A stretch of DNA of 64,000 nt from an uncultured bacterium (GTDB lineage: Bacteria > Omnitrophota > Omnitrophia > Omnitrophales > Aquincolibacteriaceae), in contig CAYSSX010000005.1 in assembly GCA_964434115.1 (NCBI GenBank), positions 95,063-159,062 of the forward strand. Direction: 5' to 3'. How positions within the stretch are numbered: the first letter of the stretch is position 1; each line of letters starts with the position of its first letter. Below, piece by piece: positions 3,443 through 47,115 of the stretch. Made by a program: the position numbers and the translations under genes. The notes beneath the pieces are model-generated. The model did no database searches. It saw only the letters and a list, made by a program, of their open reading frames with translations, and was not told the origin of the DNA.

Positions 3443-3449
3443 AGGAGTC

Positions 3450-5496: not shown

Positions 5497-6102
<606 letters not shown>

Positions 6103-9808: not shown

Positions 9809-9827
9809 TCAGAAAGCTCCTAAAAAT

Positions 9828-11456: not shown

Positions 11457-11464
11457 AAAAGGTT

Positions 11465-12796: not shown

Positions 12797-12798
12797 AA

Positions 12799-14711: not shown

Positions 14712-14713
14712 AG

Positions 14714-15196: not shown

Positions 15197-15249
15197 CTTG
15201 AACTTTCGTTTACGGGTTTGAAATTCAGGCTTGTGAAGGCTGGAAGTGT

Positions 15250-15732
15250 TTATTCCTGCTTTTGGCGCTGAATTTTTTCCTGGAGTTTCATGAGTCCATC
15301 CAGGACGTTTTCGGGGCGCGGGGGACACCCTGGGATATAAACATCCACCGGTATAAGCGTATCAATGCCCTGAACCGTGGCGTAATTGTCGTAAAACCCG
15401 CCGGTGCAGGTGCAAACCCCGAAGGCCACGACCCATTTGGGGTCCGCCATCTGATCATAAATCATTTTCAGAACCGGCGCCATTTTGTGGGAAATCGTTC
15501 CCACGACAAAAAGCACATCCGACTGACGCGGGGAAAAACGCGGGAGCCCTGCTCCGAAGCGGTCGACATCGTAATGGGAACAGGCGGTCGACATATACTC
15601 CATGCCGCAGCAGGCCGTCACAAACGGGTACTGAAAGATAGAGAACTTGCGCGCCCAGCCAATCATTTCATTGAGGCGCGAGGTCATGTACCCACCCTGG
15701 GAACTCTGCACTGCGGGTTCTGTCATGTCCAT
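15250..15732 (-). CDS. nuoB: NADH-quinone oxidoreductase subunit B (20 kDa)
   Basis: N2 cluster motifs are present (ACCGMEYM, GxCTCTGG-like GVCTCTGG, GCPPRPE). The start was chosen at MDMTEPAV (15732), which has AAGGGAG 7 nt upstream. The alternative ATG at 15753 has no SD. Confidence 0.9.
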   Translation of the reverse strand: MDMTEPAVQSSQGGYMTSRLNEMIGWARKFSIFQYPFVTACCGMEYMSTACSHYDVDRFGAGLPRFSPRQSDVLFVVGTISHKMAPVLKMIYDQMADPKWVVAFGVCTCTGGFYDNYATVQGIDTLIPVDVYIPGCPPRPENVLDGLMKLQEKIQRQKQE

Positions 15733-17532: not shown

Positions 17533-18078
17533 ATGAGAAAAAAGAGCGCCCCCCTCGCCGCGCTGGTCTTGAGTCTGCTGTTCCTGCAGTCTCCGGTAAA
17601 AACAGAGGCGGGACAGGAATTCCGGAGTTTTGAAACCATCCCTTCACCCGCGGCCGAAGAAAGAACCGCCGAAGACCTTGCCGCGGAAGGTTATCAGCGC
17701 GTTTCCACCGCGCAGAACATTTCCACTCCCATGGTCGAGAAAATGGTGTATGACCTTTTTGAATCGTGGAACTCTCACACGCTCGACCAGAAGCTGTCGC
17801 GGGACTTTCCGAATAAAAACCGTCTCAAGGAAGCGATTCAAACCGGCGTTCCCCGCCACGTAAAGCTTCAGGTGCTGTCTGTTCAAAATCCCCGCATCGT
17901 GGAACAGTATGTGCGTCCGCATCCGTCCGGTGACGGCACGTACCAGCTCCTCAGCAAAGTTTCCGTGCGTGTTCATTCGCAGATCGCGGCAAGCTCCAGC
18001 ATCCGGAGACAATTTCAGCGCGTCGACGGCGTCAGTGACTACCTTTTCCATGTGACCCAAAAGGTTAAAGCCGCATGA
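17533..18078 (+). CDS. secreted/periplasmic hypothetical protein
   Basis: The start was chosen at MRKKSAPLAALVLSLLFLQSPVKTEA (signal peptide). The ORF-track start at 17410 lies inside the preceding gene. The stop overlaps the next start (ATGA). Confidence 0.55.
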   Translation: MRKKSAPLAALVLSLLFLQSPVKTEAGQEFRSFETIPSPAAEERTAEDLAAEGYQRVSTAQNISTPMVEKMVYDLFESWNSHTLDQKLSRDFPNKNRLKEAIQTGVPRHVKLQVLSVQNPRIVEQYVRPHPSGDGTYQLLSKVSVRVHSQIAASSSIRRQFQRVDGVSDYLFHVTQKVKAA

Positions 18079-20332: not shown

Positions 20333-23300
20333 TTACGCGGAAGCGGCAAAGGCGAACTGGTTGAGGTAGCTCGCCGCAAGATCTGCAAGAAAAGGTTTCA
20401 CCTCGTAAAACACTCCCCGCTTTTCAATCCCGCTTTGAAAGAGAATCTGATCCGGATCATAAGACAGCGCCACGGCAAATGTTCCCGGACGGTCTTCTGA
20501 AACTGCAAAAAAACGGATCGTCTCCAGCGCGCTGGCGCTGAAGGAAGTCAAATCCCGGTCCCTTCTTGCAAAGGCCACAATCCCGTTTTCCCGGAATTGC
20601 GGGCCCAGTGACCGGAAAACGTCTTCTCCCCCGGCCTGCGTCCAGACAACATTCGGGAAGGATTTAAAAAGATCCTTAAGCGCGAGCACGCGTTCGTGTT
20701 CGGGCATAACATTGTGAATCACAAACCGGACATCACTGCGCTGGCTCACCGTAATCGCCGCTTCACGGACCTCTTCCGTTGTAAATGTCACGAGGTCACG
20801 GAAATCAATCATGGCCGCGCCCGGTTTTTTCACCGGTTTATAAAAACTTTCCAGGGAATTGTCCTGAAACCTCAGTTCGGACCGCGCCGGGAGAAAAGGC
20901 GCGATCCGGGGGTCATCAACAATAGAACTCAGCGTCGGTTTCGCCCTTCCCTTGGGCCACCCGAATTTCATGCCCAGCTGGTTAGGACTTGTGATCCCTC
21001 CGCCGGCCAGAGCGCGGTAGCGCGCCGCAAACTCCGGCGCTATTCCAAGACCCCAGAGAACTTCCGAAATCGAAAAAACTTTTTCCTGAAGGTACGCGTG
21101 ATTCTGAAAGGCTTTATTCTTCAGCCCGTTCAGATTCGTCCATCCGGCCGCATCCAGCCACGCGAGAATTTCCTGCTTTTTTCCTTCCGGATTTTTTGCA
21201 TCCAGAACTTTTAGAAGACCGCCTGCCGGAATTTCGATTTTTGAAAAATCAACCTTTGCGGACTGCGCCATTCTTTTATAAGCCGGCGTTGTCACGCCTA
21301 GGCCTTCGGCCGCGTAATCAAGATGCCCAAGATGCGCGGCATAAGACTCCTCAATTTTCTTCTTCGCCTCTTCCTGAATGCCCAGAAGTTTGACCAGTTC
21401 ATCGTAACCGCGCGTCACCACCCAGGAAACTTCCGGATGCGCATCTGTAAATTTCTTCAAATTCCAGGCATATGTTTCTTCAAGCTCCTGAAGGACTTCT
21501 TCCTTCGTCATCGCAAGCGCTTTCAAAAGGTCAAAGGCCGAAGCTGTCTCAGGCTGTTTCTTTTTAAATTGCGCCAGCTCCTTCAGGATCCGTTCAATGT
21601 TCGCTTTGGCGGAGGGCGTGTCGAAACCAAAGGATTCTCCGACGCGAATCATAAGACCGCCGTATTTCGCTTTTCGATCCGACGCCTCATAAAGAAAATC
21701 CTCCGCGAGGTTAAGCCCCCACAGCAGCCGCGCGTAAGAGAAGCCCGGGCTTTTGAGAAATTGAAACCCCGGCTTCGCGGCAAGAAATTTTCTGAACTCC
21801 ACAAGATTGAAGGTTGTCCCGTTCTTTTCTTCGGCAAAGACCGCATAGAGTTCCTTGCGGATCGTTTGCGCGGGTTTCTGCCCGGTTTTTTCAAGCCTTT
21901 GAAGCAGGGTGCCCGGAGGAATTTCTATTTTTTCGAAATCAATCCCAAGGCTGGCCGTTTGATGATCATAGGTCTTTGGCGGAAGCCCCATCAAGCGGGC
22001 AGCTTCCCTTTTTCTTCCCACGGACTGCTGATAAGCCTGAATATAGGGGGACCTGATTTTATTCGCCCCTTCCTCGAGGCGTTTACCGCGCGCCTGGGCC
22101 GCCATCCGCACCGAGACATCCAGGGACCTAAGCGCTTCGGCATTCCACGCATTCAACAGACGAAAGGTCTTCATGTCTTTCTTAAGGATCCATGCCGCGA
22201 TCAAATACTCTGACGCCTGATCAAAGAGAATTCCGAGATCGCGGTAAACCGACTGCGCGGTTGACTCGCCCATTTCCCTCCGGAGAATTTCCCGGATATT
22301 TTCAAAATCAAGAATCATGCTCTCAAGGAGTTCCATTTTCCTTATTTTCTTCTGCGCCTCGCTGCCGGACCCGGGCATCTTCTCAGTGCCGTGCAAACGG
22401 TCAAGGTCACGGTAGATGTCTGCGGGGGCCGCCCATTCCTTTGCCCTCAGTTCAGAACGGAACGAAGGGTGATACTTTTGAATCTTCAAATCCTGAAATC
22501 CTTCGCCCATGACATCCACGCCCACAAGGACAAGTCCCGGGTTTTCAATTGCTGACCTTTTAAGCTTCAAGATCACGGATTGTCTTTCAGGTTCTTGCAT
22601 CCACGCCCACACATTGTTAAAACTGATAATCCCCGCTCCGGAAAATAATTTCTGCAGTTCTGCGGACTCGGCATTTCCTGTCACGACACGGATGGCGGCC
22701 GAAAAATCCTGCGGGCGGGCTTGCGATGCTTGCATCAGTTCAAAAGCAGAACGCATCACCTCTGCCGGGGCACCCCGGCTTGCGGCAACAACATCAAGGA
22801 TATCCAGTCCTCCGCCCGAAACCTTGCTCCTGGACCTTTGGGCCATTTCCTCAAATTTTTCATAGCCCACAATTTCATAGGTCAGATCACTGTAGCCGGG
22901 TACCCTCTTTATTCTTTGGAGAATCCAGGCCCAGAAGAAAAGCTCCTGCCCAAAAGACGGCCCCATCACAACCACAGCAAGATGCTTTGTCTTGAGCGCA
23001 TCAATCTGCCGGAGGACGAGGTTGAGGTACCAGGACTCATGCGACATGAACCGGTTTGCCAGCTCAGAGTAGGCGTTGAATTTCTTATAAGCAGCCCCTA
23101 GATCCTGCCGGCGGGTATAGCGGAACATCGCGAGCAGAAGCTCGTCTCCGCGAAGCAGGTCCGAAACCACTCCTGTGAAGCTTCCCCGGTATTGATCCCG
23201 GAAAAGACGCGTCACCGAAAAATGCGTCATAAAATCGAAAAATTCTTCGCCGCTGACTTTTCCTCCCGCGGCTTTTTCAAGAACCTTATAAATCGCAGAA

Positions 23301-26300
23301 AAGTCCTTCATATATGAACCGATATGATCCTCAAAAAGAAGCACCTCGGGAATTCCCGGTTTTCGCCACTCCTCCGCGGCCCGCAAGTCCCACTCGCTCT
23401 CAGCCCTAAGCTCGGCCCGCTGCCCCGGCTCAGCGGCAGCCGCCGATTTTTTCAGAAGTACTTTCCAGCCGATCAAAAAAGGCGTCTGCTCCGGCTGAGG
23501 GACTTCAAAACGCTCTAATTCTAAAACCGTGAAGCCGTGGGTCTCGAAAAGGGTTTTTAATTTTTCTTTCTCCGGATCTCCGAAAGCAGCCGCGTGTTCG
23601 AGGTAATATTTAAAAAGGCTTATATGGCTGCTGATGTCGCCGCGCATCTCTTCAAGGGCGGGAATGGCTTTTTCTCCAGCAATCAAGATCAGTTCCATCT
23701 GATCGATGACCTCCTGAACGGTATCGGTCTCCTTTCCGCTTGCGCTGCGAACAGTTTCTTGAAGCGCGCTATGAGCCGCGAGAACCCTTTCAGAAGTCTC
23801 AGGACCCGGGTCCAGGGTATAGTCCAGAAGGGCTTGAACAACCCCCGATTTCTGAATTTCCTCCATCTCCCACAGCCTTTCGCGGACGGATTCCGCGATA
23901 ATGGAGCCGCTGTGGTGAATCACCAGGGCCGCGGGCGCGCCCGGCTTCAAAACCTTATTAAGGGCTTCAAGGGCACGGCCGGGATCCTGCACATACTCCA
24001 GTCCATAAGAGGCTGTTGCGGCATCAAAAAACTCCGGCGGGAAAGCTTCTGCAGTATTTTCAATTCGGGTCTGATGAAAATAAATTCCCTGTCCGGCGGG
24101 AATGAAGGAAGGATCCAGAGGAGCGCTGTCCACTCCATGAAATTCGGCTGAGCTCCCGGAAATTTTCAGGGCCTCGGCGGCTCCGATCCTGGGAACAAAC
24201 AGGCGGCCCGTGCCGAGATCCAGAAACTTTGAACCCGGTTTGTTCTGAAGCACACCGGAAAAAAATTCTCCGAAAAACTTTTCAACCGCGGCCCTTTCCT
24301 CTTCAAAGCCTTCCCCAAGAATTGAAATCTGCCCTTCTTCGCGCCACTGCTCAGGCCAGACATTTCCGGACTCACTCTCGGTGCTCCTCAATTCTGAGCG
24401 GTGATTTTTTTTGAAATAGTCTTTGGCCGGTGCTTTGGCAGTCTCGTCCGAGCCCGGTGCGGAAACCCGGTTTTGGATCGCCGTCAGGATGAAGGATTCT
24501 ACGTCCTGGATTTCAACCGGCGAAATCAAAGAGCGGACCCGGACCTCGTCGCTTGCCGCATCTTTCCACATCAAAGCTTGCCAGCCCTTATGAACAGCGG
24601 ACTCAATACCAAACCAGTCGTGGAGATTCGTATCCAGATTCTCAAGCGTTGTCCTTAAAATCACGGGTTGAGCCCCACCTAAAACATCAAGCTGCAGGGC
24701 AAACGCCCCTTCATGGGGCCGCAGGTGAACAGCGCGAATAGTTTTAAGATCCGGAATCTCAGGTTGTGAAATACCGCTGTCTTCAGGGATCTCAAGTTTA
24801 AAGATGAGTTTTTTCAAAGACGGCGAGAACGGCTGGCTGATGGCGACCAGGTTGTAGCCCTCGTCTTTCAAAAGCAGCTGCGTGTGCAAATCCTGTTCAT
24901 CCACAGGAATCACAATTGAAGTGAGGCTGTCCTCTTCCGCAATTTCTCGAAGCTGCTGGAGCAAACGTCTGTCAACACCCCGAAAGTTCAACGCTGGAAG
25001 AATTCCCATACGCTCCACCATAAGACGCTGTCCTATCTGGTGATAAGCCAAATAGCCAGCGGAATTATGTTCATGTTCCGCGGTCAAAACACGGCCCTGT
25101 TCATTTTGCACAAAATCAAGAAATGCACTGAACGTCCAGGGCTCTTTCCGATCCACGCGCGCTGTTTCAATTTTGGATTCGAACAGATGAAAATCTTCGA
25201 CCTTATGATCCCGGACAGTGACTTCAAGCTGGCTGTAATCCCCGCCTTTGAGGCGAAGCCCGAGAAGGCCAGCAACTGCTTCAACTTTTTCCGCAGGGAG
25301 TCCAGAAGTTTTTGAAAATGCAAAGGCCGTCAAAGGCAGCTCGCGCCCTGATCCTTCAGGGAGAAGTTCCAGCATTCTCTCCTTTAGTTTTTGCTCGCGG
25401 ATGGGCATGAGAATGTGATCGGCATCGTAGGCCGGAATTTCCGGATAACGTGCAACCGCTTCGGCTGTCACCAGCTTTTCAAGCGGCTGCCGGAGAGCCC
25501 AGGCATGCATCTGATTACGCGGGTCCCTGACCCTGTCATGGCGGGCGGTTTCTTCAAAATCGATTTCTTCCGGATCTTGCCGGTATTCGAAAAGATACGC
25601 ATCCTCCCCTGTGTCTTCGAAATAGTCCCGGCTGACTTGCACAGCCGAAAAACCCTGAGAGCGCCAGAAAATCTGGGCGCGCAAATCGCTTTCACGGACG
25701 ACCACGCGCAGCCAATTACGCTGCTGGGCGGAAAGCTTTCCTTTTAACTTCTCAACCATTTCATGCCCAATTTTCCGGCCGCGGGTTTCCGGCTCTACTG
25801 CAAAATTTAAAATCTCGAGGCCCTTGCGATGAAGTGAATAGACCATGAACCCCTTCACAAAGTCGCCAATCTCCGCGACCATTCCGATGACGTTGCGCTG
25901 CCGAAGGGCCCGAAGAAAATCTTCGTCCGTCCAGGGCATCGAGAAACTTTTCCCTTCAATGTCAAGGACCTCAGGCATGTCCCGCCGGATCATCCAGCGG
26001 ATATGAAGCCCCTTAACGGGATCACGGCTGACATAAGGTCCTTCTTCTGGGAGTGTCCGGCTGGGAGCCGCGGGTTTCTCTGTCACAAGTGAAACTCCGT
26101 AATAGGCGAGTATCTTTTCAGCCTCTTTCGGGTTTAAACCAAATTCCTCGGCCTGGCTGATAAATGCCGTCATAGTTACCGGGGTGCGCTCCAGGCTTTG
26201 AGCCCATCGGCGGAAGTGTTTTTCACCTTCGGGAATTTTACGGATTGTTTTCTCCAGCAAGTAAAGGCTTTTACCGTCCTTCAACTCATACTCATCCAAA

Positions 26301-29300
26301 AACTTAAATCCGGCACGGGTACGAAAATTTCTTCCGCCGTCCGCGAAGTCTTCAACGGGAAGTTCCCACAACATCCGGTTAGGAGAAGCTGTTTTCGCTG
26401 CGTCTTGATCTTGAAGGTGTTCAGTGAACCGCCGAAGCATGGCGCCGGGAACAGTTCGCGCCGAAAAGGCGGCATCCAGAATCTCATACGTTTCTCCGCT
26501 TTCAGAATAAGCCAAATATCCGGTCAGCCGGCCGTAAGAACGAGCTTCCAGAATTTTTCCTCCACGATTCAGAAAATCCCTGAAGGCCTCACGGGTCCAT
26601 TCAAACCGCGATTGCTCTTTCGCAAAACTTGCAAGATCTTCGACTGAAGAGAGATCCGCCGCGCGAATCCGGGTTTTATAAGCTGGCTGTTTCACTGTTT
26701 TCGAGTCTCTCGTCCACGGGCTGACTTCCTTGCGCTTAAGGCTTTCCAGAACGCCTTTCGGGCTCGCGGCCATCTTGAGCTCCCGCTGCTCTTCCATGTA
26801 CTTTTTCATTTCACGGAGTTTGCGAAGAAATCTTGCGGCCTGTTCCTTGGATTGAAGCAGGTTCGCATCGATTTCCGGATGCCAAAAAACAAATTCGGTC
26901 ACAGACTTTTTCTGCCAGCTTTCATCCTGCTCCGAAAGCGAAACAAACCCTGCTTTCTTGAAAAACTCGCTCACGGGTTCGTTTTGCACGGGCACGTCTG
27001 CGGAAACAAATGAAAGGTTTTCCTTGTTCATGATCCACTTAATATGTTCCAGCATCTGGCTGCCGATGTAAGAGAAGCGGTGCGCGGGATCGACGGCCAT
27101 TTTCTGAATGTCGATGCGCTCTTCAAAAATCTGATACACGATATAACCCACCACACGGCCTTCTTCATCCACAGCCACAGTTTTAAAACGGTTAAAGCCT
27201 TCTTCCACTTCATCCATGAGTCCCCCGCCGGAGTCCTCGCGAGTCTCATCTTCTTTGGGTTTTTCCTGAAATCCCCAAGGCGACCAGCGGTCAGGAACCC
27301 GAAAGGCTGCGCTTTCAATCCGCATCACATCATCAAGGTCTTCATCGTTCATATCCCGTATCAAAAGGGCCTCGGCCGGATAACCGCCGCGCGGCTTGAG
27401 ATTATGCTCTCCGAGAATGCGCCGGACCATCAGAGCACTGAGCCCGGGATATTTTCCCCGGATGTCTTCAAAATTAAGGGAAAGCTCTGCTCCGGGCGTC
27501 TGGCGCAAAGCCCAGGCCCGAAGAAAAGTCATGGGTGATGGAACATACTCTTCGGGAATTTCTCCGCCTTCTTCAGGACGCCCGCCCCAAAGCGGTGAGT
27601 AATAATCGAGTGTGTAAAAATCTTTCTTTCCAGAAGACCTCGATTTTTGGACATGCTGATGCTTGGACTTTCCGAAATACTTTAAATCGCGGAAAGCAGC
27701 TTCGAGAGTCAGCACTTCTTTGCCGTCGTCACGGAGTTTTTTCTGGGCCATGCGCCAAAGCACCCGCAAGAGCATTCGCGGGCCTTGGGCAGGATCAACA
27801 GCATATTTCAAGACTTGCATGCCGGACTCTGTAGGCTGATACACAAGATAGGCTGCGATGGAACCGTTTCTAAGCGCAACGATCGCCCGCGCCCCGTAGG
27901 CCGTCTCCAGATGTTCCCAAAACGTTTCGCCCCAGGGATTTTTCAGGCGTGCATCAAAATCAAAAAACGTTTTCAACTGTCCTTCAGGAAGTTCCCGGAT
28001 CTCATAATTCTGTCCCCGGGCTGTCACGGCATGCGTTCTCGTGACCTCATAATTTTCATGCGTGCCTTGATTGGCCCAGTAAGGCCATGTTTTGCCGCCG
28101 TCCAGGGAGTACTGAAAAGTCAGTGTTCCGGAAAAATCACTTGGCAGCGTTACGCCAACCCTATATGTGCCGTTTTCAAAATTGTCGTACAGCGTCATCT
28201 CAAGGTCATTTTTCCACTCCACGTCTTTTTCGGTTTTGTAATGAACACGGGCCTTAATCCATTTCTCAGGATTTTCGAGAATGCGGTCGGTGTGGATATT
28301 GAAATAAAACGCCACCGGGGTCTTGTCTGTGGCTTCGATTTTCCGGCCTTGAACTTCCTGCGCTCCGGCCATGACGGCAAATTCGCCATACCCCTTCCCT
28401 GCAGGATGAACAGGCCCTTCTTCGAGCGGGGCCCTCAATTCGCTGCGGCCCTTATCCTGATCTCTGGGATCAAGAGACCGGAATTTCGTCACAAGCAATT
28501 TGGGAGAATCAGCAGGAGACTGCCCGGTAATTTGGTTGTACGTCTGCGCGGTTGAAACCCCTGAAATGCTATGGACGGGCTGCTGCCGCGAATAAGGGGG
28601 AACTGTTTTCGTCAAAGCGCCTCGATCATGGACGGTGATCATCACGACGTCCTGATCCCCAGAGGGCAGGGAGCCGAGACCGATTTCAACATCAAATGTT
28701 TTTTCCGGATACGCAAAGGCCAGATAATCCGCCGCCGCCTCAAGAGCTTCGTCCGCACCCTCTTCTGTTTTTACATAATAGATTTCATCTGCCTTCACAT
28801 CCGGATGCGCACGGACAGCGATGGCTCCGGCAGGACCCGGCGTGTGCACGGTGGTTAAATTCATACCCTGTGTTCCCTGCTGAAGAAAACGCGTGACCAT
28901 GATCGGTTTCCGGGGATCAGGCTGAGAGCCCTCAATCAGCGACCGCGCTTTTGAGAGAGTCTCTTCCCGCCCAAGGTTCTCTACAGGGGAAACTTCCGGA
29001 TAAGGGACATACTGTTCCAGGGAATGCTCCATGCCCCGCAGTTCGCTGCGGACCCCGTGCTCGCCGTTCAAAGGAAGAACATGGGTTTCTTTGAATTCGC
29101 GGAAAACATCCGCCCCGCCGGACGTGATGAAGGAATTTTCCAGCACCTCCTGCACTAAACGGAATCCATCGCGGACCTGCGCGAGATAGCCTTCCGGTTC
29201 ACGTCTGTACATGGCATGTTCAAGGCCCATCAAGTAACGCTGCCACGCGTGGTCAATCACATTCAGCTGGCGCTCGCGGGTCCATAGTCTCTCCTGCTTT

Positions 29301-32300: not shown

Positions 32301-35300
32301 GCGAACTCTTCGCGGAAAAGATTCTGGTAAACGGCAGTCATGGCAAGAAAATGATCCCGGACATGGACTTTTGAAACTTCGGGAAAGTCTTCTTCCCAAA
32401 CCTGCCAGGACCGCAAAACACCCCGCTCGAGATTTTCTTTGATTTTCGCCCAGCTCTGCGTAACGCCGCTGTCAGAGGCAATCCAGTCCCTGAGAATCAA
32501 GCCTCCATTTTCGACATGAAAAGATGTTTCAAAAACATCGAGAAAGGCTTCGACGTTTCGGAAGCCCTCTTCCCGGGACACGTTCATTGCACTTCTCAAA
32601 ATTTTCCAGACGGCTTCATTTTCTTTCGCAGCCGCTTCATAACGTGCTTCAGCCTGCCGGGCCGTTTCATGATAGAGACGCGGTTCCTGCTTCCTGAGCG
32701 ACTCCGTCAAATAGTCTTCCGCGTAACCGCTGAAATCACGGAGTTCTGAGCGATCAAACGTCTCACCGCCTGCGGCCGCTTCGGGGAATGATTCGATTTC
32801 TGCAAGCAGGAGTTCGGGAAAGTTCAGCGGGTGCCCCTGAACTTTCTCGCTGCGAAGGGGCTTCCAGTGAGTTTTCACGATAAGCTGAATGCGTGTTTTG
32901 GGTTCCGTTTCCTCGCGGTAGCGGGCCAGTATTTCCCGCGCACGTTCCGATATCGCTGCCGCCGCCAGGGTTTCTTCATAATCAAGAGCGCCCGGAACAT
33001 CCTCTTCCGAAAGGGCCTGAATAAAAGCCGCTGCGATCATGCTTTCATATTTTCCAAACTTGGGAAGCAGACCGTCTGAATCAGAAAAACCGACCACGAG
33101 ATCGATATCCGAATCACGCCCCAGTTCAGGAGACACAAGCTGCTTGAGGGAGGCGCCCTGAACTCGTCCTCCGACCCACACCGCCTGAACCGGGTAAACC
33201 GGAAGCCCGGCCCCGCGCGCGGAATCCGCGTAAAGCTGAAGAGCCTTTGCGGACACGCGCCGAATCCCCCGGAATGTTCTTTTGTAGTTTTCCGCTTTCT
33301 CAGGCGTGATGGCGCCCGCGCTAAGGGCTTCCTCCACCCGCCGTTCATTCACGCTCACCACATCTTCATATGTTCTGATTTCCCGGTAGCGCCCAAAAGG
33401 CTCGTTGGTGCGCAGTTCGGAGCGGCTTTCTGAAATCCGATTGTCTTCAACAAGGGCAACCTTCTGCCCCTCCGTTGAAAAAAGGCGGCGGACAAGTTCT
33501 GCTTTTTTCCATTCACGGGGAACCAGCCGAACTTCCTGAACAGCCCAATCCCTGGGAATGGCCATCCCGCGGTAAGTTTTGTGTTCAAGATCAATCACCC
33601 AGATCTTGCTCCTGTGAATATCCACAGCAGCATAAATTTGCCCATACAGCCACCGGACGTTCTGAAGCCACTCTCCCAACTGAGCCGGGCGGGAGACGCC
33701 GGGCATTCCGTTCAGAGTGATTTCGCGCACGGGCTCAAATTTGCTGTCAAAGACCTGGAACTTTCCATCGCGTGTACTGGTCACCAAATAGTGGTTGTTC
33801 CCGATTTTTCTAAATCCATGCGGGCTTGAAAAACCGCTTAGGACTTTCAAGGTTTTCCCTGAGGCTTTGTCAACCACAAGGGTTTCGCCCCGATGGAAAA
33901 GAGAAATCAAAATCGTGTTGGAATCAAGAGCCATCGCGCTGTTCAAATGCACCGCTCTTTGACGCGTAGGAATGCCGAATTCCCCCCAGGTGGAAGGGTC
34001 TTTAACCCAAATAACCTCTCTGTGTTCCGCTTCAAGCTTCCGGGCTTCTTCTTGTGAACGGGTTAAAAAATTTCCAAACATCGACTGGTTGTAACCATGT
34101 TCCCAGGCGTTCCATTCCCAAACCACACGGTCACGATAGGTGTCAATTTCATAAACCGCATCAAAGCCGGTTGAAGCAGCGAGAAGGTATCGTCCGTCCG
34201 GAGAAAATTGAACCGTATGAATGTGTGCAAACCAGGGGTAAGTGTAAATTTTTGTGCGGCCCGTTTTGCGATTCAAAAGAGTAATCGTGTTGTTGCCCCC
34301 GACCGCCATCCGTGAACCGGAAAAATCCACATCGTGCGGCTCAAGAGCACGCTCTGACCAGAACGAACTTGCTTCGTCCATGCTGTCATTTTTCAGAGAA
34401 ACGGCGAGGATCCGGCCCTCTTTGTAAGGCCTCGACGCTGCCCCTCCTATCACTTGAGGTCCGGGTTGAAGCATGGATTGCAAGGCCCGCTCATCCGTTG
34501 CGGACTGTTCCATGCCCTTAACCGTCACAATAACGTTTTCATCCCGCGCAAGGCCGTTGTCGTATTGAAAACCGGAAAGCTGTTCTGGAATACCCGCCCG
34601 GAGCTCTGAGCGGACAGAATCATCCTCTTCCCCGTCATAAATTTTAAGAGCTGAGACGGGGAGATCAGGTTGTTCGGACACTCTCTCCGGCTCCTCTCCG
34701 GGAATAAAAAGCTGGGGCTTTTTTGGGGAATGTTCTTTCCATTTTTGAACCACTCTTTCGGCTCCGCTCATCAGAAGCCCTGCCGTAACAGCGATTAATC
34801 CGGCGCCTATTTCCTGCGCCAGGCTTAAAGACTTTCCCGCTGCGACTTGCGCGGCGGAAGCAAAAGTTAAAAAGGCCGCGGCATTAAGAAGGAAAAAACC
34901 TGCGCGCTTGATTCTTCCTTCAGCAACGGCAATCACAAAAAAGGCGCTCATCAAAAGCTGCATGCCGGCAATAAACTCTTGATGCTTTGCGGGCAGAAAC
35001 TGCGCGAACACTTGCCCGGCTTTTAAAGCCGTGAACGCGGCTCCTCCCTGCACCAGGAACCGCACCGTTTCCTGAAAACCGCTTTCTTCCTCATCGCCGG
35101 GTTCTTCCGGAGCGGTTCTCAGTTCCGAACGGACGCGGGGAATCAACAGCTTCACTTTTAATCCCTGCTTGTGCTTGATTTTTGAAACGCCTGTTTCCAT
35201 CCACGGACGCCCAATAATTTCACCTTCAATTCCAAAAATAGGCAGTGCAAAATGTTCACGCGTCCAGCGGTTGAGACTGCGGACCCAAACCAGAGAAGCA

Positions 35301-38300
35301 AACCAGCCCGAAAAGTACCTTTCACTTTTCTTGTCATACTGCACAATAACTTCCCCGCCGAGAATCCGCCGGATCACCGCGTCAATCGCATTGTGATAAC
35401 CGTGTTTGCGGACCCTGCCAAATTCATCAGGATATTCTTCGCCCATGATCGACCGCCGCACACCTTCCGCCCGGGAGGTCAACGCGCCGCCGTCCCGGAT
35501 AATGAATTGAACATTCTTAGGATCATCATCCAGCCGGTAAAAAAACATGGCGCCCATGGGGTCCACGTGCCGGATATTGGCAATCAGCTCCGAGAAAACC
35601 GGCGTCAGCTGGCCCGCCTTAAAAGAATCGCCCGGCCGGACAGAAAAATCGGGGACGTCCGATCCATACCGCTCGCGGAAGATTTTTTTCCCTTCTTTTG
35701 TGACAAGCTCTCCTTCAATCCCGGCATGATAAATAAACAGGTCTGTTGTGAGAGTTTTCAACTGGCTGAGCCGTTCCGACTCGGCAGCCACCGCTTCGTC
35801 GAGAATGGCGAGCAGCCCTTGATCAAACTCCGCGGCGGCTTTCATGTAGTTCGGCGTTCCCATCGGATGAGCCCTCAGCGTGCGGTCTTTTAAAGCTTCG
35901 ATAGCGGGGCCCATGCTGTGCGTCTTGCTTCGGTACCAGTGTTTCAAGAGCTTGGACACGATTTTGTCCGCACGCCTTTCGGGACTGGGCTCTTCCGTTT
36001 CTTCAAAGGGTGATTCATCCATTTCCGCGTCCGGATCAACGCGGAGTGCGGAGTGGGCCTGCTTACCCAAAGCGGCGTCATGAAGTTCGCGGCTAAAAGC
36101 ACCCGAACGGATTTTTTCATCAATGTCTCTCAACACTTCAATATTTGTGCTAAACCATCCGTAAACATTGCCATTACGGTCAATAATCGCCAGGGACTGC
36201 TCCAGCGGATCCACGGCCGATAAATCATAAAGATGGCGTTCCGACAGTTTTTCCGGGCGCACCATCCAGGTCATCATGTCAAGGACATGGCGTCTTGCCA
36301 TTTCAGGAATGGCCTGGATCTCTTCTTCCGTGAGCGCCTGGTTTTTTTGATACCGCTCGACTTCCTGCCGGAGTCCCTGAAGATTGAATGTCCGGTCGTC
36401 CGTTGTGATTTTAAAAATGCCTTTGAAAAAATCATAAATGCGGACTTCTTTTCGAAGATGGTCCCAGTCAAACACGGCCTTAACCTGGTCCCCTTCATAC
36501 GTCATGTTCCCGGGATGGAAATCGCCATGAACCAGAGTCTGAGGAAGACGGGCATAAACAGGCGGCGGAAGATTGAGATTTAAAAGGGAGATCTGTTCAA
36601 GGAGAAAGCTGGCGTTCTGCAGAAAAAATCTTTCCCCGCGCGTCAACACAGCGCTGGGATCGGCCTGTTTTTGAACCAGCCTTGCCTGAAGCTGCTTGAT
36701 GCGTTCTTTCTGGTTTTCAAAATCCAGAATGGAAGGGCGGGTACGCTTTCCCGTTACTTGAAAATCCCGCAGGGTTTTATGCATCGCAGCTAAGACGTCG
36801 ATGGAATTTTCAAACTGCTTCGTGTTCAAGGTCTCAGGCGTAAGATTTTGGCCTTCAACAAAATGATAAAGCAGGTAGATTTTCCCGTTTGCGGCTTCTA
36901 CAAAATAGCGGTCTTCATCAAATTCCCCTGCGGGTTTTGTCGTCGGCACCAAGTCCGCGGCCGGAATCCCTTTGCGCACCAGTTCCCGCACCACGGACAC
37001 TTCAAAACGAGCGCCTTCTGTCAGCTCGGGATAAAGCACACGGGTCAGCGGTTTAAGAATGTACTTGCCCTTGCTTGTGGTGACCTGAAGAGATTTGCCG
37101 TGCTCCCCGATCCCCCCGGCTGTGGGGCTTATTTTCTGAACTTCTCCGAGGGCATACTGCTTCAGGACTTCTGGCGCAGCTTCCAGATCTGCGCGGGCCA
37201 TCTCGGCCTGCCAGCGCGCGCTTCGCACATCTTCCCTGTCCGGATCTTCTGCCGTTTCTTCCATTCGAAGCTCGGCCCTGGCCGCTGTTTGACCGGAGTC
37301 ATTTTTTCTCGTCTTACGGAACCGGAGATCCGCTTCACGAGCCATTTCGGGCAGATCGCCGGATAAATTCCGGACAATTCCGCTCAGGCTGTTCATTTCT
37401 TCCGCAATCCGTTGACGCACCTCGGGTCGGCCTGAATTTTCCATTTCAAACAACGTGATAAGGCGGGCCATGCCCGAAGCAATACCCGAAGCAAAAATGC
37501 CTGACCCTGCGGCCATGCCCTGCCGGTAATATTCCTGGTGTCTTTCATCAAGGTGCGTGACCCGGGGCACGGCCACGGCATAACCCATACCCAGGTTTTC
37601 CAGAATGCTCCGGATGCGGTCCGAATGAAATCCTCCATACACCAGCACCGCGGTTTTCTCATCCGGAATTTTTGAGAATTCTTCCACAGCTTCACGGATT
37701 TTTTCGTCGCGTCTCATCGCGGTCTCATAAAAACCGCGCGCGCACTGAAGGCTTTCTTCCCACCGGCGCGGCAGCACAATCGTTTTCTTTCCTTCGCGCG
37801 CCAAAAAGGCGGCAAGGTCCTGAGTCTTGAAAGCGTCGAGGGTTTCCTTCGAGGCCTGGTATTCGGCGGGAGTGACTTCGAGTTTGTTCAAACGGTGAAA
37901 AAGGCGGACGGCTTTGAAATACTCATACAGTTGTTTTTCCCGAGGACTCTCAAGCAGGGCTTCGGCAAGGCCGTCTTCGAGCCGTTTCATTTCCAGAAGA
38001 AGCTCTGAGGCCCCCCGCTGATTCACGCGGTCTAAAAGATCGGCTTGCTTGGTGTCCAGCGCCCGCAGCATTTCAGCAGAGGCGGGGTATAAAATTTCAA
38101 ATTGTCCCCCTGCCGGCGAAGCAAGGTAAAGGCGGCAGACCTCCCTCAGATAAACCGCGAAGTCTGTTTTGGTTTCTTCAAAACGTTTCTTCGCACGCAG
38201 AAAATCCTGAAGCTTTTTCAAACCGAGAGAGCGTGTAAGATTCTCCAGCTCTCTTTCCACAGCCAGGAAATCCTCTTCCACATCTCCTTGAACACGCACC

Positions 38301-38845
38301 GCTTTGGAATACCAATCCACGTTTTCGAAATGGTCCTGAAGGCTGTCGGCACCGATCAGGCGGAAATCCCGGCTTCTATTAATATGCGCGTATTCCGCAC
38401 CGCCGATTTTTAATTGATCCAGAAAATAATAGGCCGTCTTGCGTTTCACTTCGGGGTCAGAAATGTTTTTGAACAAGGCGTCCGTGGGAACCGGCCCTTC
38501 ATAGCCTTCTTCGTAAACGGTTTTGACGCTCTGGTTTTCGACCAGGTGGGTGATCATGGCCGCGATATTTTCCTGCGCCTGCAGGACATCATGCGCGTCC
38601 TGGATAAAAATAACCGTTTTGCCGGTGCTGCCAGGGTGAAATTCTTCAATGTTTCCGAATTCAGATGGAAGGCTGATCGAGGCGGGAATGGGAATCCCGG
38701 ACGCTTCGGGCACCGCCGCGTCCGCGGCAGAGCCTGTGAGCAGGCAGACCGAGAGCATAAGCGAAATGACCTTATGCGCCCAGTTGGGGGGCTCTACAAA
38801 ATTTCTCTTATCAAACATAAACGGGGGCAGCGTCTCACTTTCCAA
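20333..38845 (-). CDS. giant multidomain protein (6170 aa) with the following recognisable parts: signal peptide, APH-type kinase-like domain, TM clusters, beta-propeller-like region, minimal nucleotidyltransferase, Fis-like HTHs, SecA-family DEAD ATPase motor, 5x GNAT, 2x SAM-methyltransferase, C-terminal repeats
   Basis: It is a single uninterrupted 18,513-nt frame.
- Signal peptide: N-region plus KVISLMLSVCLLTGSAADAA.
- Kinase-like: HGDFHPGNM...DWDH (Brenner motif, aa 773-798).
- NTase: GRDSDIDLVVGFSDSD (aa 1909-1924).
- SecA-family motor: Walker A AVEKEPGEGKTL (30905-30922), ILDEGD, TGTMG, ATSVAGRGVNI, and SRRIDDQAKLRAARRGDPG, which corresponds to the SecA motif VI RRIDNQLRGRSGRQGDPG.
- GNAT A-motifs: IQKMAVDPAHRFSYIGSQM and LNFAVEPETRGRKIGHEM.
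- Methyltransferase: motif I FLDLGTGR (24206-24223), plus a CheR-like VVVMGPSFGQE segment.
The start is uncertain. The ORF track begins at a TTG (38845). The first ATG (MFDKRN) is at 38818. Neither has a clear SD. Confidence 0.85.
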   Translation of the reverse strand: MESETLPPFMFDKRNFVEPPNWAHKVISLMLSVCLLTGSAADAAVPEASGIPIPASISLPSEFGNIEEFHPGSTGKTVIFIQDAHDVLQAQENIAAMITHLVENQSVKTVYEEGYEGPVPTDALFKNISDPEVKRKTAYYFLDQLKIGGAEYAHINRSRDFRLIGADSLQDHFENVDWYSKAVRVQGDVEEDFLAVERELENLTRSLGLKKLQDFLRAKKRFEETKTDFAVYLREVCRLYLASPAGGQFEILYPASAEMLRALDTKQADLLDRVNQRGASELLLEMKRLEDGLAEALLESPREKQLYEYFKAVRLFHRLNKLEVTPAEYQASKETLDAFKTQDLAAFLAREGKKTIVLPRRWEESLQCARGFYETAMRRDEKIREAVEEFSKIPDEKTAVLVYGGFHSDRIRSILENLGMGYAVAVPRVTHLDERHQEYYRQGMAAGSGIFASGIASGMARLITLFEMENSGRPEVRQRIAEEMNSLSGIVRNLSGDLPEMAREADLRFRKTRKNDSGQTAARAELRMEETAEDPDREDVRSARWQAEMARADLEAAPEVLKQYALGEVQKISPTAGGIGEHGKSLQVTTSKGKYILKPLTRVLYPELTEGARFEVSVVRELVRKGIPAADLVPTTKPAGEFDEDRYFVEAANGKIYLLYHFVEGQNLTPETLNTKQFENSIDVLAAMHKTLRDFQVTGKRTRPSILDFENQKERIKQLQARLVQKQADPSAVLTRGERFFLQNASFLLEQISLLNLNLPPPVYARLPQTLVHGDFHPGNMTYEGDQVKAVFDWDHLRKEVRIYDFFKGIFKITTDDRTFNLQGLRQEVERYQKNQALTEEEIQAIPEMARRHVLDMMTWMVRPEKLSERHLYDLSAVDPLEQSLAIIDRNGNVYGWFSTNIEVLRDIDEKIRSGAFSRELHDAALGKQAHSALRVDPDAEMDESPFEETEEPSPERRADKIVSKLLKHWYRSKTHSMGPAIEALKDRTLRAHPMGTPNYMKAAAEFDQGLLAILDEAVAAESERLSQLKTLTTDLFIYHAGIEGELVTKEGKKIFRERYGSDVPDFSVRPGDSFKAGQLTPVFSELIANIRHVDPMGAMFFYRLDDDPKNVQFIIRDGGALTSRAEGVRRSIMGEEYPDEFGRVRKHGYHNAIDAVIRRILGGEVIVQYDKKSERYFSGWFASLVWVRSLNRWTREHFALPIFGIEGEIIGRPWMETGVSKIKHKQGLKVKLLIPRVRSELRTAPEEPGDEEESGFQETVRFLVQGGAAFTALKAGQVFAQFLPAKHQEFIAGMQLLMSAFFVIAVAEGRIKRAGFFLLNAAAFLTFASAAQVAAGKSLSLAQEIGAGLIAVTAGLLMSGAERVVQKWKEHSPKKPQLFIPGEEPERVSEQPDLPVSALKIYDGEEDDSVRSELRAGIPEQLSGFQYDNGLARDENVIVTVKGMEQSATDERALQSMLQPGPQVIGGAASRPYKEGRILAVSLKNDSMDEASSFWSERALEPHDVDFSGSRMAVGGNNTITLLNRKTGRTKIYTYPWFAHIHTVQFSPDGRYLLAASTGFDAVYEIDTYRDRVVWEWNAWEHGYNQSMFGNFLTRSQEEARKLEAEHREVIWVKDPSTWGEFGIPTRQRAVHLNSAMALDSNTILISLFHRGETLVVDKASGKTLKVLSGFSSPHGFRKIGNNHYLVTSTRDGKFQVFDSKFEPVREITLNGMPGVSRPAQLGEWLQNVRWLYGQIYAAVDIHRSKIWVIDLEHKTYRGMAIPRDWAVQEVRLVPREWKKAELVRRLFSTEGQKVALVEDNRISESRSELRTNEPFGRYREIRTYEDVVSVNERRVEEALSAGAITPEKAENYKRTFRGIRRVSAKALQLYADSARGAGLPVYPVQAVWVGGRVQGASLKQLVSPELGRDSDIDLVVGFSDSDGLLPKFGKYESMIAAAFIQALSEEDVPGALDYEETLAAAAISERAREILARYREETEPKTRIQLIVKTHWKPLRSEKVQGHPLNFPELLLAEIESFPEAAAGGETFDRSELRDFSGYAEDYLTESLRKQEPRLYHETARQAEARYEAAAKENEAVWKILRSAMNVSREEGFRNVEAFLDVFETSFHVENGGLILRDWIASDSGVTQSWAKIKENLERGVLRSWQVWEEDFPEVSKVHVRDHFLAMTAVYQNLFREEFAREALERILSRTRLIVRGYRKSETVRSWSPEDSRNAFEISGQYAGLDFVVPWNHQVRVTISNPRSDARTFPYLTAVIDQTLAADFLSELKGVNDLFKRWPWLAKHARFSISYKKTAVLALLTAALSLLFGPAAGRIGLLIEFLAWGTAAVLWIDIFQIKSQVRREFEEFADKVQEESGMWTVITGDDPQSEAVRSELRSGISDEQVIRSWAEREKDYIRDVMTYARGVQTDAVKILGISRSKLSRYLKARLPQDSFSHELPRDFKLTTLAKLKRAYAISALILHAGNQRETTRKTGIAYRTMHDLVEESEFEMLRGETPEVLLRKFAEEVKLAFSPEEIRNILGARFDLVRDTEILKNLKRVLGVAPDGRAEIWHLAAKITQRENEDRREGRFQKEADFRAATEAFRERLSAGETVDSIFSEAAAVFKSAARFRIGQYPSDEQVAAAIAIHRGSAVEKEPGEGKTLSIAMAAYINALSGRAAHIHTFNSYLAGRDAQEMGPVFDLLGMRVGVMTEADQPYLFDPASSGSRRPGKKHLSSSYKDNQGHRQPVQKKDVYRSDIVYGVKDLFVFDFLYDQRKQRLDQKVQPPGGPSIVILDEGDATLLDESGYPLILASPDALSAARLRKVDYLMLYQTALALSKDTDYEIDPVKESVELHRHGLLAAIHYLKYLQFDTLKLTELMREHELGNLLRQALLTKHFNERDGDYILRNGKIELVDEFTGRVKSHHVLGNHRHQFIAAKETYHGNEAELLEPTFHNGLITYQNYYRMMQRRSRFSIITGTMGNDAAEIEKTYGLTYISIPKQSPTLLVEHPPVVTRTKNEKDRLIAGKIAELHAAGRPVLVFVKRISDARALARALEEESLDAAVIDGLDLEEEVLAVANAGKKGQITIATSVAGRGVNIKIEDDVRALGGLAVIMTRKSRSRRIDDQAKLRAARRGDPGEVYWFLSEEDESFRLFGDQARSEEILRQSRRQILFYDDELDPYRRVFYEARDLFLELTKQERLWTRERQLNVIDHAWQRYLMGLEHAMYRREPEGYLAQVRDGFRLVQEVLENSFITSGGADVFREFKETHVLPLNGEHGVRSELRGMEHSLEQYVPYPEVSPVENLGREETLSKARSLIEGSQPDPRKPIMVTRFLQQGTQGMNLTTVHTPGPAGAIAVRAHPDVKADEIYYVKTEEGADEALEAAADYLAFAYPEKTFDVEIGLGSLPSGDQDVVMITVHDRGALTKTVPPYSRQQPVHSISGVSTAQTYNQITGQSPADSPKLLVTKFRSLDPRDQDKGRSELRAPLEEGPVHPAGKGYGEFAVMAGAQEVQGRKIEATDKTPVAFYFNIHTDRILENPEKWIKARVHYKTEKDVEWKNDLEMTLYDNFENGTYRVGVTLPSDFSGTLTFQYSLDGGKTWPYWANQGTHENYEVTRTHAVTARGQNYEIRELPEGQLKTFFDFDARLKNPWGETFWEHLETAYGARAIVALRNGSIAAYLVYQPTESGMQVLKYAVDPAQGPRMLLRVLWRMAQKKLRDDGKEVLTLEAAFRDLKYFGKSKHQHVQKSRSSGKKDFYTLDYYSPLWGGRPEEGGEIPEEYVPSPMTFLRAWALRQTPGAELSLNFEDIRGKYPGLSALMVRRILGEHNLKPRGGYPAEALLIRDMNDEDLDDVMRIESAAFRVPDRWSPWGFQEKPKEDETREDSGGGLMDEVEEGFNRFKTVAVDEEGRVVGYIVYQIFEERIDIQKMAVDPAHRFSYIGSQMLEHIKWIMNKENLSFVSADVPVQNEPVSEFFKKAGFVSLSEQDESWQKKSVTEFVFWHPEIDANLLQSKEQAARFLRKLREMKKYMEEQRELKMAASPKGVLESLKRKEVSPWTRDSKTVKQPAYKTRIRAADLSSVEDLASFAKEQSRFEWTREAFRDFLNRGGKILEARSYGRLTGYLAYSESGETYEILDAAFSARTVPGAMLRRFTEHLQDQDAAKTASPNRMLWELPVEDFADGGRNFRTRAGFKFLDEYELKDGKSLYLLEKTIRKIPEGEKHFRRWAQSLERTPVTMTAFISQAEEFGLNPKEAEKILAYYGVSLVTEKPAAPSRTLPEEGPYVSRDPVKGLHIRWMIRRDMPEVLDIEGKSFSMPWTDEDFLRALRQRNVIGMVAEIGDFVKGFMVYSLHRKGLEILNFAVEPETRGRKIGHEMVEKLKGKLSAQQRNWLRVVVRESDLRAQIFWRSQGFSAVQVSRDYFEDTGEDAYLFEYRQDPEEIDFEETARHDRVRDPRNQMHAWALRQPLEKLVTAEAVARYPEIPAYDADHILMPIREQKLKERMLELLPEGSGRELPLTAFAFSKTSGLPAEKVEAVAGLLGLRLKGGDYSQLEVTVRDHKVEDFHLFESKIETARVDRKEPWTFSAFLDFVQNEQGRVLTAEHEHNSAGYLAYHQIGQRLMVERMGILPALNFRGVDRRLLQQLREIAEEDSLTSIVIPVDEQDLHTQLLLKDEGYNLVAISQPFSPSLKKLIFKLEIPEDSGISQPEIPDLKTIRAVHLRPHEGAFALQLDVLGGAQPVILRTTLENLDTNLHDWFGIESAVHKGWQALMWKDAASDEVRVRSLISPVEIQDVESFILTAIQNRVSAPGSDETAKAPAKDYFKKNHRSELRSTESESGNVWPEQWREEGQISILGEGFEEERAAVEKFFGEFFSGVLQNKPGSKFLDLGTGRLFVPRIGAAEALKISGSSAEFHGVDSAPLDPSFIPAGQGIYFHQTRIENTAEAFPPEFFDAATASYGLEYVQDPGRALEALNKVLKPGAPAALVIHHSGSIIAESVRERLWEMEEIQKSGVVQALLDYTLDPGPETSERVLAAHSALQETVRSASGKETDTVQEVIDQMELILIAGEKAIPALEEMRGDISSHISLFKYYLEHAAAFGDPEKEKLKTLFETHGFTVLELERFEVPQPEQTPFLIGWKVLLKKSAAAAEPGQRAELRAESEWDLRAAEEWRKPGIPEVLLFEDHIGSYMKDFSAIYKVLEKAAGGKVSGEEFFDFMTHFSVTRLFRDQYRGSFTGVVSDLLRGDELLLAMFRYTRRQDLGAAYKKFNAYSELANRFMSHESWYLNLVLRQIDALKTKHLAVVVMGPSFGQELFFWAWILQRIKRVPGYSDLTYEIVGYEKFEEMAQRSRSKVSGGGLDILDVVAASRGAPAEVMRSAFELMQASQARPQDFSAAIRVVTGNAESAELQKLFSGAGIISFNNVWAWMQEPERQSVILKLKRSAIENPGLVLVGVDVMGEGFQDLKIQKYHPSFRSELRAKEWAAPADIYRDLDRLHGTEKMPGSGSEAQKKIRKMELLESMILDFENIREILRREMGESTAQSVYRDLGILFDQASEYLIAAWILKKDMKTFRLLNAWNAEALRSLDVSVRMAAQARGKRLEEGANKIRSPYIQAYQQSVGRKREAARLMGLPPKTYDHQTASLGIDFEKIEIPPGTLLQRLEKTGQKPAQTIRKELYAVFAEEKNGTTFNLVEFRKFLAAKPGFQFLKSPGFSYARLLWGLNLAEDFLYEASDRKAKYGGLMIRVGESFGFDTPSAKANIERILKELAQFKKKQPETASAFDLLKALAMTKEEVLQELEETYAWNLKKFTDAHPEVSWVVTRGYDELVKLLGIQEEAKKKIEESYAAHLGHLDYAAEGLGVTTPAYKRMAQSAKVDFSKIEIPAGGLLKVLDAKNPEGKKQEILAWLDAAGWTNLNGLKNKAFQNHAYLQEKVFSISEVLWGLGIAPEFAARYRALAGGGITSPNQLGMKFGWPKGRAKPTLSSIVDDPRIAPFLPARSELRFQDNSLESFYKPVKKPGAAMIDFRDLVTFTTEEVREAAITVSQRSDVRFVIHNVMPEHERVLALKDLFKSFPNVVWTQAGGEDVFRSLGPQFRENGIVAFARRDRDLTSFSASALETIRFFAVSEDRPGTFAVALSYDPDQILFQSGIEKRGVFYEVKPFLADLAASYLNQFAFAASA

Positions 38846-47082: not shown

Positions 47083-47115
47083 ATGGGTACTCTCCCGAAT
47101 TTAAAATGTTAACGT

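Follow-up and report, generated by a model that had tools for sequence, protein, structure and literature searches.

A single open reading frame (ORF) of 18.5 kb lies at 20333-38845, on the minus strand, in a 64,000-nucleotide stretch of contig CAYSSX010000005.1 (GenBank assembly GCA_964434115.1) from an uncultured bacterium; the whole stretch is termed the window. The ORF encodes a giant protein with a conserved N-terminal head, a long string of cargo domains and a conserved C-terminal tail. A short motif, R-[S/A]-E-x-R, recurs between these parts. By sequence comparison the protein belongs to a family that shares this head-cargo-tail plan, comprises at least 4,865 sequence clusters and comes almost entirely from Candidatus Omnitrophota. 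The combination of head, RSExR motif and tail is an organising principle undescribed in the searchable literature: no description of the head or the tail was found there, and targeted text searches gave none for the motif ('RSELR' returned only the name of an R package). The protein is perhaps a polyprotein in which the junction motifs are putative endopeptidase sites, cut by the head or by a head-like activity, and this account is given about an even chance of being correct.

Constant ends, junction motifs and exchangeable cassettes

Relatives were sought with aa 1-4815 of the giant protein as query. The search returned an identical protein in a public collection (P0001) and more than 115 further proteins of 2.6-7.8 thousand amino acids (kaa), whose named sources are nearly all Candidatus Omnitrophota. 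Each relative covers only 8-11% of the query. The common part is the N-terminal ∼400 aa, and the first segment of the giant has BLAST matches in 118 of 119 relatives. A profile of this head (A1), compared with 1.84 billion sequences, matches 8,958 cluster representatives at E<=1e-3, of which 4,865 remain at E<=1e-30, and the matches are always N-terminal. Among species-representative genomes there are 159 loci, almost all in Omnitrophota metagenome-assembled genomes (MAGs) and often several per genome; two head starts ∼6.9 kb apart on one contig (L065 and L069, JAQTOZ010000005.1) show that genes of the family can stand in tandem. The Pfam cargo of the relatives is varied and includes epimerases, radical SAM, NUDIX and HD proteins, kinases, methyltransferases, glycosyltransferases and others. 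The original prediction described the protein as a mosaic. It is not a singular one: 120 relatives share the head and many also the tail, with quite different enzymes between. The domain set of the giant is thus one draw from a variable cargo repertoire.

Twelve copies of R-[S/A]-E-L-R are present in the giant protein, against 0.05 expected from shuffled sequence, and one further copy was found elsewhere in the window with all six frames considered. Neither these motifs nor the conserved tail had been remarked on in the original prediction. The first site after the head is RAELR at aa 523-527 (37265-37279; coordinates within the gene are on the minus strand). RSELR follows at aa 1239 (35117-35131), 1412 (34598-34612), 1808 (33410-33424), 2032 (32738-32752), 2375 (31709-31723), 3266 (29036-29050), 3467 (28433-28447) and 4816 (24386-24400). 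Site 10 is RAELR at aa 5143 (23405-23419), site 11 is RSELR at aa 5463 (22445-22459), and site 12, RSELR at aa 5988 (20870-20884), stands directly ahead of the tail.

The density of R[SA]ExR in the giant is 1.94 per kaa. The other 36 ORFs of the window have one copy in 12,468 aa (0.08 per kaa), which rules out a proteome-wide bias towards the motif. The codons that specify the motif vary among the 12 copies, which indicates selection on the peptide and not on the DNA. A cause at the DNA or RNA level is also ruled out by this variation, together with the lack of Rfam and tRNA matches in the window. In the 120 relatives (498,586 aa) the motif is found 983 times versus 32 expected from composition, while permuted or conservatively substituted control motifs occur 8-60 times. 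At least three sites are present in 112 of the 120, with a median spacing of 318 aa, and the number of sites follows protein length (1.88 per kaa, r=0.65, n=151 complete proteins).

Sites are located between domains. None falls within a Pfam envelope in the three proteins checked, and only two were found inside heads across 201 heads. The flanks are unconserved, with small or polar residues upstream and acidic residues downstream, and order-promoting residues become scarcer within ∼10 residues of a site, their fraction being 0.15-0.23 there compared with 0.33. The GGFH sequence of the head is followed by the first site at a distance of 50-150 aa in 168 of 190 relatives; in the giant the distance is 116 aa (GGFH at aa 404-407). 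Several paralogues of MAG C24_metabat.bin.98 (L006, L037, L046 and L056) show a pair of R[S/A]ELR sequences 30-55 aa apart directly after the head, which bound a mini-segment.

Position x in the relatives is Leu (27%), Val (20%), Met (20%), Ala (13%) or Ile (8%). In some genomes it is fixed across paralogues that have heads only 39-52% identical and unrelated cargo. MAG C24_metabat.bin.98 encodes five paralogues with heads only 42-46% identical and downstream regions without detectable similarity, and all 18 sites are R[SA]ELR. In ZLKRG04, x is Leu in six of six sites with heads 39% identical, and in ERP113451_co3_34 all sites are RSEAR. The giant and its closest genomic relative have Leu only; x is mixed in other genomes. 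Two proteins, P0015 and P0056, have no RSExR but carry 9 and 14 copies, respectively, of x-[S/T/A]-GFG[A/S] in the same linker context, the first copy being at about aa 501-504, directly after the head. Interchangeable motifs at the same positions, together with the fixed x, argue for a sequence-specific reader of the motif and against a purely structural linker.

The closest relative, P0002 (L001:10001-22102), is a 4033 aa protein known from independent ENA, Logan and JGI assemblies. Segments 5-6-7-8 of the giant are collinear with it and match from site to site. After segment 8, P0002 runs straight into counterparts of segments 11 and 13 of the giant. The GNAT block, the methyltransferase and the duplicated block described below are missing in P0002, with the breaks at sites; thus whole cassettes have been inserted or deleted exactly at the motifs. 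A further case is found in segment 2 of the giant, the second half of which stands alone in P0004 as a cassette flanked by two RSELR sites. The upstream one of these is matched, position by position, by HSALR at aa 931-935 of the giant (36041-36055). HSALR is therefore read as a decayed site, where the kinase cassette and the one after it have become fused. In P0002 a complete sigma-70 factor (regions 2, 3 and 4; aa 828-1050) is contained in one cassette, between the sites at 749 and 1865.

The giant gene is real. The single uninterrupted frame of 6170 codons reported originally, counted from a TTG, was recovered in the window, but the likely start is the ATG at 38818 (codon 10), which gives 6161 aa. 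P0001, encoded on a 248,032-bp NCBI contig, starts at the same ATG and also has 6161 aa. The stop codon is at 20333-20335. No obvious Shine-Dalgarno sequence is seen upstream of either start (38818-38845). Base composition is even along the ORF (GC 52%). The sequence is MAG-derived, which leaves room for an assembly chimera, for gene fusions produced by sequencing errors or for a decaying pseudogene. Such an origin is nevertheless very improbable: there is no stop codon in 18.5 kb at 52% GC, the Pfam domains all lie in one frame, the family head is at the start and the family tail at the end as in 151 other complete members, and five cassettes match those of P0002, from its independent assemblies, in the same order and frame at 50-80% identity.

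Head and tail modules

The N-terminus of the giant (aa 10-46, 38708-38818) resembles a signal peptide, as had been predicted, with a basic n-region, a hydrophobic core (VISLMLSVCLLTG) and then A-D-A. The head module follows at aa 65-470 (37436-38653). P0001 scores 523 bits against profile A1 (E=5e-152), and the giant thus has the A1 head along with the junction motif and a tail of the family type. An [IVLFY]Q[DE]AH motif is found at median aa 82 in the relatives. Invariant in 34 diverse heads are D83-x-H85, E113 (+28), R379 and H407 (+28 from R379). The head has no sequence-level match in Pfam, NCBIfam or PDB. The predicted structure is confident and shows an alpha/beta fold, in which helices flank a central parallel beta-sheet, with the invariant residues at the C-terminal ends of strands; a helical insertion of ∼220 aa separates the E113 side of the set from R379 and H407.

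At fold level the head is supported as a putative hydrolase of the TIKI/TraB/Ere type, and a tentative assignment of this region to TIKI/ChaN/TraB-like proteins in the original prediction is borne out to this extent. The TIKI/TraB/erythromycin-esterase/ChaN superfamily (Sanchez-Pulido and Ponting, 2013, as cited in PMC6254334) is defined by a parallel beta-sheet core, a 2His/2Glu set and a conserved Arg (PMC6254334). The modelled head has the fold, a 2His/2Glu-type set and the conserved basic residue. In RRSP the residues are E3900, H3902, E3930 and H4030, with R4001 29 residues before the second His, and in BcR135 the catalytic residues are H85/E113 (PMC6254334). Head and superfamily thus share the beta-sheet core and the order [D/E]-x-H, E 28 residues later, then R, then H 28-29 later. 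The head differs in having Asp and not Glu as first acidic residue of the catalytic set, in the ∼220 aa helical insertion and in its constant fusion to giant cargo. The close match of D83-x-H85/E113/R379/H407 to the RRSP and BcR135 residues and their spacing makes the head a candidate enzyme. The superfamily includes site-specific endopeptidases (TIKI, RRSP) as well as esterases and a haem-binding protein (PMC6254334).

The tail occupies aa 5993-6170 of the giant (20336-20869). An iterated hidden Markov model (HMM) seeded with the last 178 aa detects a ∼165 aa domain in 134 of 203 relatives; in 124 it forms the very end of the protein, and it usually starts 15-45 aa past a site. The giant matches the HMM with E=3e-42 and ends in ...FAFAASA. 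An -AA or -SA terminus after a hydrophobic stretch is found in 161 of the 203 proteins; such ends resemble C-termini recognised in ssrA-type tagging or by tail-specific proteases. The tail has no sequence-level match in PDB, Pfam or NCBIfam. Its fold is predicted to be a HAD-like Rossmannoid without invariant catalytic residues, and with no conserved polar residues the tail was ruled out as the protease.

Cargo of the giant protein and its genomic setting

Most of the domain reading in the original prediction holds for the cargo. An aminoglycoside phosphotransferase (APH)-type kinase is at aa 586-818 (36392-37090; PF01636, E=3e-20, 73.4 bits versus a cutoff of 23.2) and has both the HGDFHPGN (HxDxxxxN) and DWD (DxD) motifs, in agreement with the HGDFHPGNM and DWDH first noted. 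A small membrane cassette (aa 1244-1411, 34613-35116) has transmembrane (TM) helices at about 1291-1335, and the cassette between sites 5 and 6 (31724-32737), which has no assigned function, ends in a TM hairpin at aa 2297-2337; these hairpins correspond to the two TM clusters described earlier. Between the two lies a propeller-like cassette, aa 1417-1807 (33425-34597), where a beta-propeller had been placed at aa ∼1430-1760; only weak WD40/lactonase-type matches (E=4e-5 to 0.05) speak for it. Segment 5 (aa 1813-2031, 32753-33409) has no matches and no assigned function, and is 80% identical to a site-to-site cassette in P0002.

A SecA-like motor lies in a cassette at aa 2380-3265 (29051-31708). 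SecA_DEAD (PF07517, E=1e-54), SecA_PP_bind (PF01043, 2e-14) and P-loop_SecA (PF21090, 2e-32) are found at aa 2559-3088, with GEGKT and DEGD motifs. Within aa 2559-3265 the first nucleotide-binding domain (NBD1, with GEGKT), the cross-linking domain (PPXD) and NBD2 are all recognised. The motor had been called complete, but the scaffold/wing domain (PF07516) reaches only E=0.013, at 16 bits against a cutoff of 26.7, and is largely absent. A helix-turn-helix (HTH) domain, HTH_8 (PF02954), precedes the motor at aa 2392-2429 and accounts for one of two Fis-like HTHs in the original reading; the second is seen by eye only. The next cassette (aa 3271-3466, 28448-29035) has no assigned function and no matches, and is 50% identical to one in P0002. 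Pfam matches for a beta-sandwich placed after the motor are sub-threshold only.

A GNAT-rich cassette extends over aa 3472-4815 (24401-28432), with domains at aa 3872-3967, 4292-4399 and 4566-4656. Five GNAT folds had been proposed. With finer tiles, three pass the PF00583 threshold (42.6, 35.4 and 24.5 bits), a fourth is marginal at 12.7 bits, below the cutoff, and a fifth gives no match. The class-I S-adenosylmethionine (SAM) methyltransferase is confirmed at aa 4867-4981 (PF13489, E=1e-9), within the cassette at 23420-24385. Segment 11 (aa 5148-5462, 22460-23404) is 73% identical to a cassette in P0002 and has no assigned function. A CheR-like methyltransferase had been assigned to this segment and a minimal nucleotidyltransferase to segment 5; neither finds support in Pfam, NCBIfam or PDB sequence searches, and both identities were dropped. 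The final cargo cassette (20885-22444) contains the duplicated C-terminal repeat noted before, aa 5591-5741 versus 5825-5963. BLAST self-comparison misses this duplication, and a calibrated Smith-Waterman alignment detects it with a score of 121 (z=14.9). By eye, each unit (20957-22075, aa 5591-5963) holds a Fis-type HTH-like stretch (GRKREAARLMGLPPKTY and its repeat), for which there is no Pfam match. Overall, the observations of the original prediction are partly confirmed and its interpretation is partly supported.

The giant gene has an ordinary chromosomal setting of metabolic genes, with nuo genes and genes for an SdhA/FrdA-like flavoprotein, a ClC channel, PFK, RsmH and cytochromes c. 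NuoD of the window shares 75-77% identity with named Omnitrophota proteins and thereby assigns the organism to this phylum on independent grounds; with a head family almost entirely from Omnitrophota, the origin suggested originally is upheld. Complex I (nuo) subunits, an SdhA/FrdA-type flavoprotein and two cytochrome-c-domain proteins are encoded at 8693-15328, 1523-3502 and 45733-48585. An incomplete electron transport chain has been described in Omnitrophota genomes (bioRxiv 10.64898/2026.06.07.730766), and this MAG may be metabolically richer than the genomes of that 2026 preprint. Two large ORFs, 18075-20321 on the plus strand (748 aa) and 55859-58159 on the minus strand (766 aa), have no Pfam match at E-value cut-offs of 0.001 and 1e-5. 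The former also has no NCBIfam match; it faces the giant gene tail to tail, with its end 12 bp from the giant's stop codon.

Proposed processing of the chain and its alternatives

The observations suggest the following scheme. The signal-peptide-like N-terminus would bring the nascent chain to the membrane. Next would come the conserved TIKI/TraB/Ere-superfamily hydrolase head, and then a string of what are probably independently folding cassettes: the kinase, membrane anchors, propeller-like unit and SecA-like motor with HTH, the GNAT block, the methyltransferase and several of no assigned function. The HAD-like tail, with its apparently obligatory -[A/S]-A C-terminus, would close the chain. 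At each junction an R-[S/A]-E-x-R in a short flexible linker would serve as recognition site of a sequence-specific endopeptidase, for which the head, in cis or in trans, would be the most parsimonious candidate, and cutting there would free the cassettes as separate proteins. The sigma-70 factor of P0002 plausibly needs release from the chain, which favours processing.

Several points weigh against this account, in which both the cleavage and the role of the head are inferred. The best Foldseek E-value for the head is 0.03, a remote similarity, and since the superfamily also holds esterases and a haem-binding protein, membership does not imply peptidase activity. Convincing stand-alone heads, a possible sign of action in trans, were not found among the short matches, which are contig-truncated or on a contig of 2x coverage, and this line of evidence was dropped. 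P0015 has a near-canonical head although its motif is of the GFGA type, which weakens the link between head and motif. A uniform x across heads that are ∼45% identical is explained by one trans-acting reader no less well than by the heads themselves. Finally, the head is predicted to be exported whereas the cargo is of a cytoplasmic type, and enzyme and sites may lie in different compartments. The same facts (the uniform x across heads only 39-52% identical, the switch in P0015 and the exported head with cytoplasmic-looking cargo) would be accommodated if the polyprotein were processed by a separate trans-acting protease encoded elsewhere. The head would then have another role, as an esterase or peptidase on a prey or envelope substrate, or in anchoring and maturation. 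C39 or S8 peptidase domains of other Omnitrophota giants have in fact been proposed as processors (bioRxiv 10.1101/2023.11.21.568195). A separate protease is nonetheless judged unlikely. No partner protease gene was found near the giant gene in the window, the surroundings of the gene are not conserved in P0002, and no module that looks catalytic, other than the head, accompanies the motif in every member.

It is also possible, at a similarly low probability, that the protein is not cut at all but is a membrane-tethered multi-enzyme scaffold, in which RSExR is a docking motif for a chaperone, export factor or regulator, or a motif that sets linker conformation. Location in linkers and unconserved flanks are equally typical of docking motifs, and a genome-wide fixed x suits any single reader, proteolytic or otherwise. 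The literature treats such proteins as membrane-anchored giants, and a 39,678 aa Omnitrophota protein gave peptides with no processing reported (PMC10066038). However, one motif per junction, including those after the head and before the tail, is the pattern of a polyprotein and not of multivalent docking. Sites decay where two cassettes remain fused, and it is difficult to see how sigma-70 and HTH proteins would function while tied into a chain of 4-6 kaa. In addition, the sole universal enzyme-like domain is from a superfamily with site-specific endopeptidases.

Topology is a difficulty in its own right. A Sec-signal-peptide-like N-terminus is found in 159 of 178 complete family members, the net charge being +3.3 ahead of the hydrophobic core and -0.6 behind it, and the later TM segments of the giant come in pairs. 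Taken naively, this would put both the head and the entire cargo outside the cytoplasm, although the cargo is of the kind that needs ATP, SAM or acetyl-CoA, or that binds DNA or RNA polymerase. The same export paradox has been described for proteins of at least 10 kaa (bioRxiv 10.64898/2026.06.07.730766). Delivery of cassettes into another cell, in analogy to MARTX toxins, would resolve it.

The original prediction found no characterised system with this combination of domains, but giant multi-enzyme proteins of Omnitrophota with a divergent SecA are already a described class: a 'multi-enzyme metabolic cluster' class and SecA_DEAD-bearing giants have been reported (West-Roberts et al., 2023, bioRxiv 10.1101/2023.11.21.568195; bioRxiv 10.64898/2026.06.07.730766). 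The giant resembles these in its phylum and in the many unrelated enzyme Pfams in one chain, with recurring GNAT, methyltransferase and kinase content. The divergent SecA motor without scaffold/wing and the signal peptide plus TM helices are also shared. Unlike the present 6.2 kaa protein, those studied are at least 10 kaa (at least 30 kaa in one study) and are classed by Pfam content, and no conserved head, tail or junction motif was reported for them.

MARTX toxins of Vibrio and viral polyproteins appear to be the closest mechanistic analogues. MARTX toxins release their effector cassettes through a cysteine protease domain (CPD), of the C80 type activated by inositol phosphate. As in those toxins, a protein of several thousand amino acids carries exchangeable cassettes between conserved terminal regions, and proteolysis in inter-cassette linkers, known for MARTX, is proposed here. 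The MARTX effector RRSP (PMC6254334) shares the fold superfamily of the head. Differences are the strict pentapeptide in place of a Leu-based site, a Sec-type-looking N-terminus in place of a C-terminal type I secretion signal, and cargo that looks metabolic or regulatory and not cytotoxic. Pfam scans of all segments at E<=0.1 revealed no RTX repeats and no C80 cysteine protease domain, the two features that define MARTX toxins. In viral polyproteins a cognate protease, such as picornavirus 3C or potyvirus NIa, cuts at a repeated junction motif. Similarities are the several mature proteins per ORF (here proposed), the short junction motif with unconserved flanks that co-varies with lineage, and the protease in the same chain (here a candidate only). 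In contrast to the viral systems, the family is cellular, chromosomal and multi-paralogue, the candidate has a TIKI-like and not a chymotrypsin-like fold, and cleavage is only inferred.

Two recent surveys of giant bacterial proteins leave it unknown whether and where the products are cut. Cleavage points of Omnitrophota giants have been stated as not known (bioRxiv 10.1101/2023.11.21.568195), and the lack of known protease motifs has been named an obstacle (PMC11573180). A countable junction motif, together with a universal head and tail, makes this question experimentally approachable. It also provides a rule by which giants can be split computationally into cassettes, each to be annotated and have its structure predicted, and defines a family of at least 4,865 clusters for which there is no Pfam or NCBIfam model. 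If processing takes place, no larger set of cellular polyproteins would be known, and its cassettes would be exchanged as modules at the cleavage sites. A bolder and rather doubtful extension is that thousands of Omnitrophota polyproteins share an RSExR 'cleavage code', with a genome-specific x and sometimes GFGA in its place, and that a Sec-exported head of the TIKI fold cuts them and frees the enzymes outside the cytoplasm, in the periplasm or in a prey or host cell. Were this so, the prey or host cell would supply ATP, SAM and acetyl-CoA to the released kinases, acetyl- and methyltransferases, sigma factors and SecA-like motors, and ultra-small bacteria that live as predators or parasites would have a novel means of delivering or deploying whole sets of enzymes.

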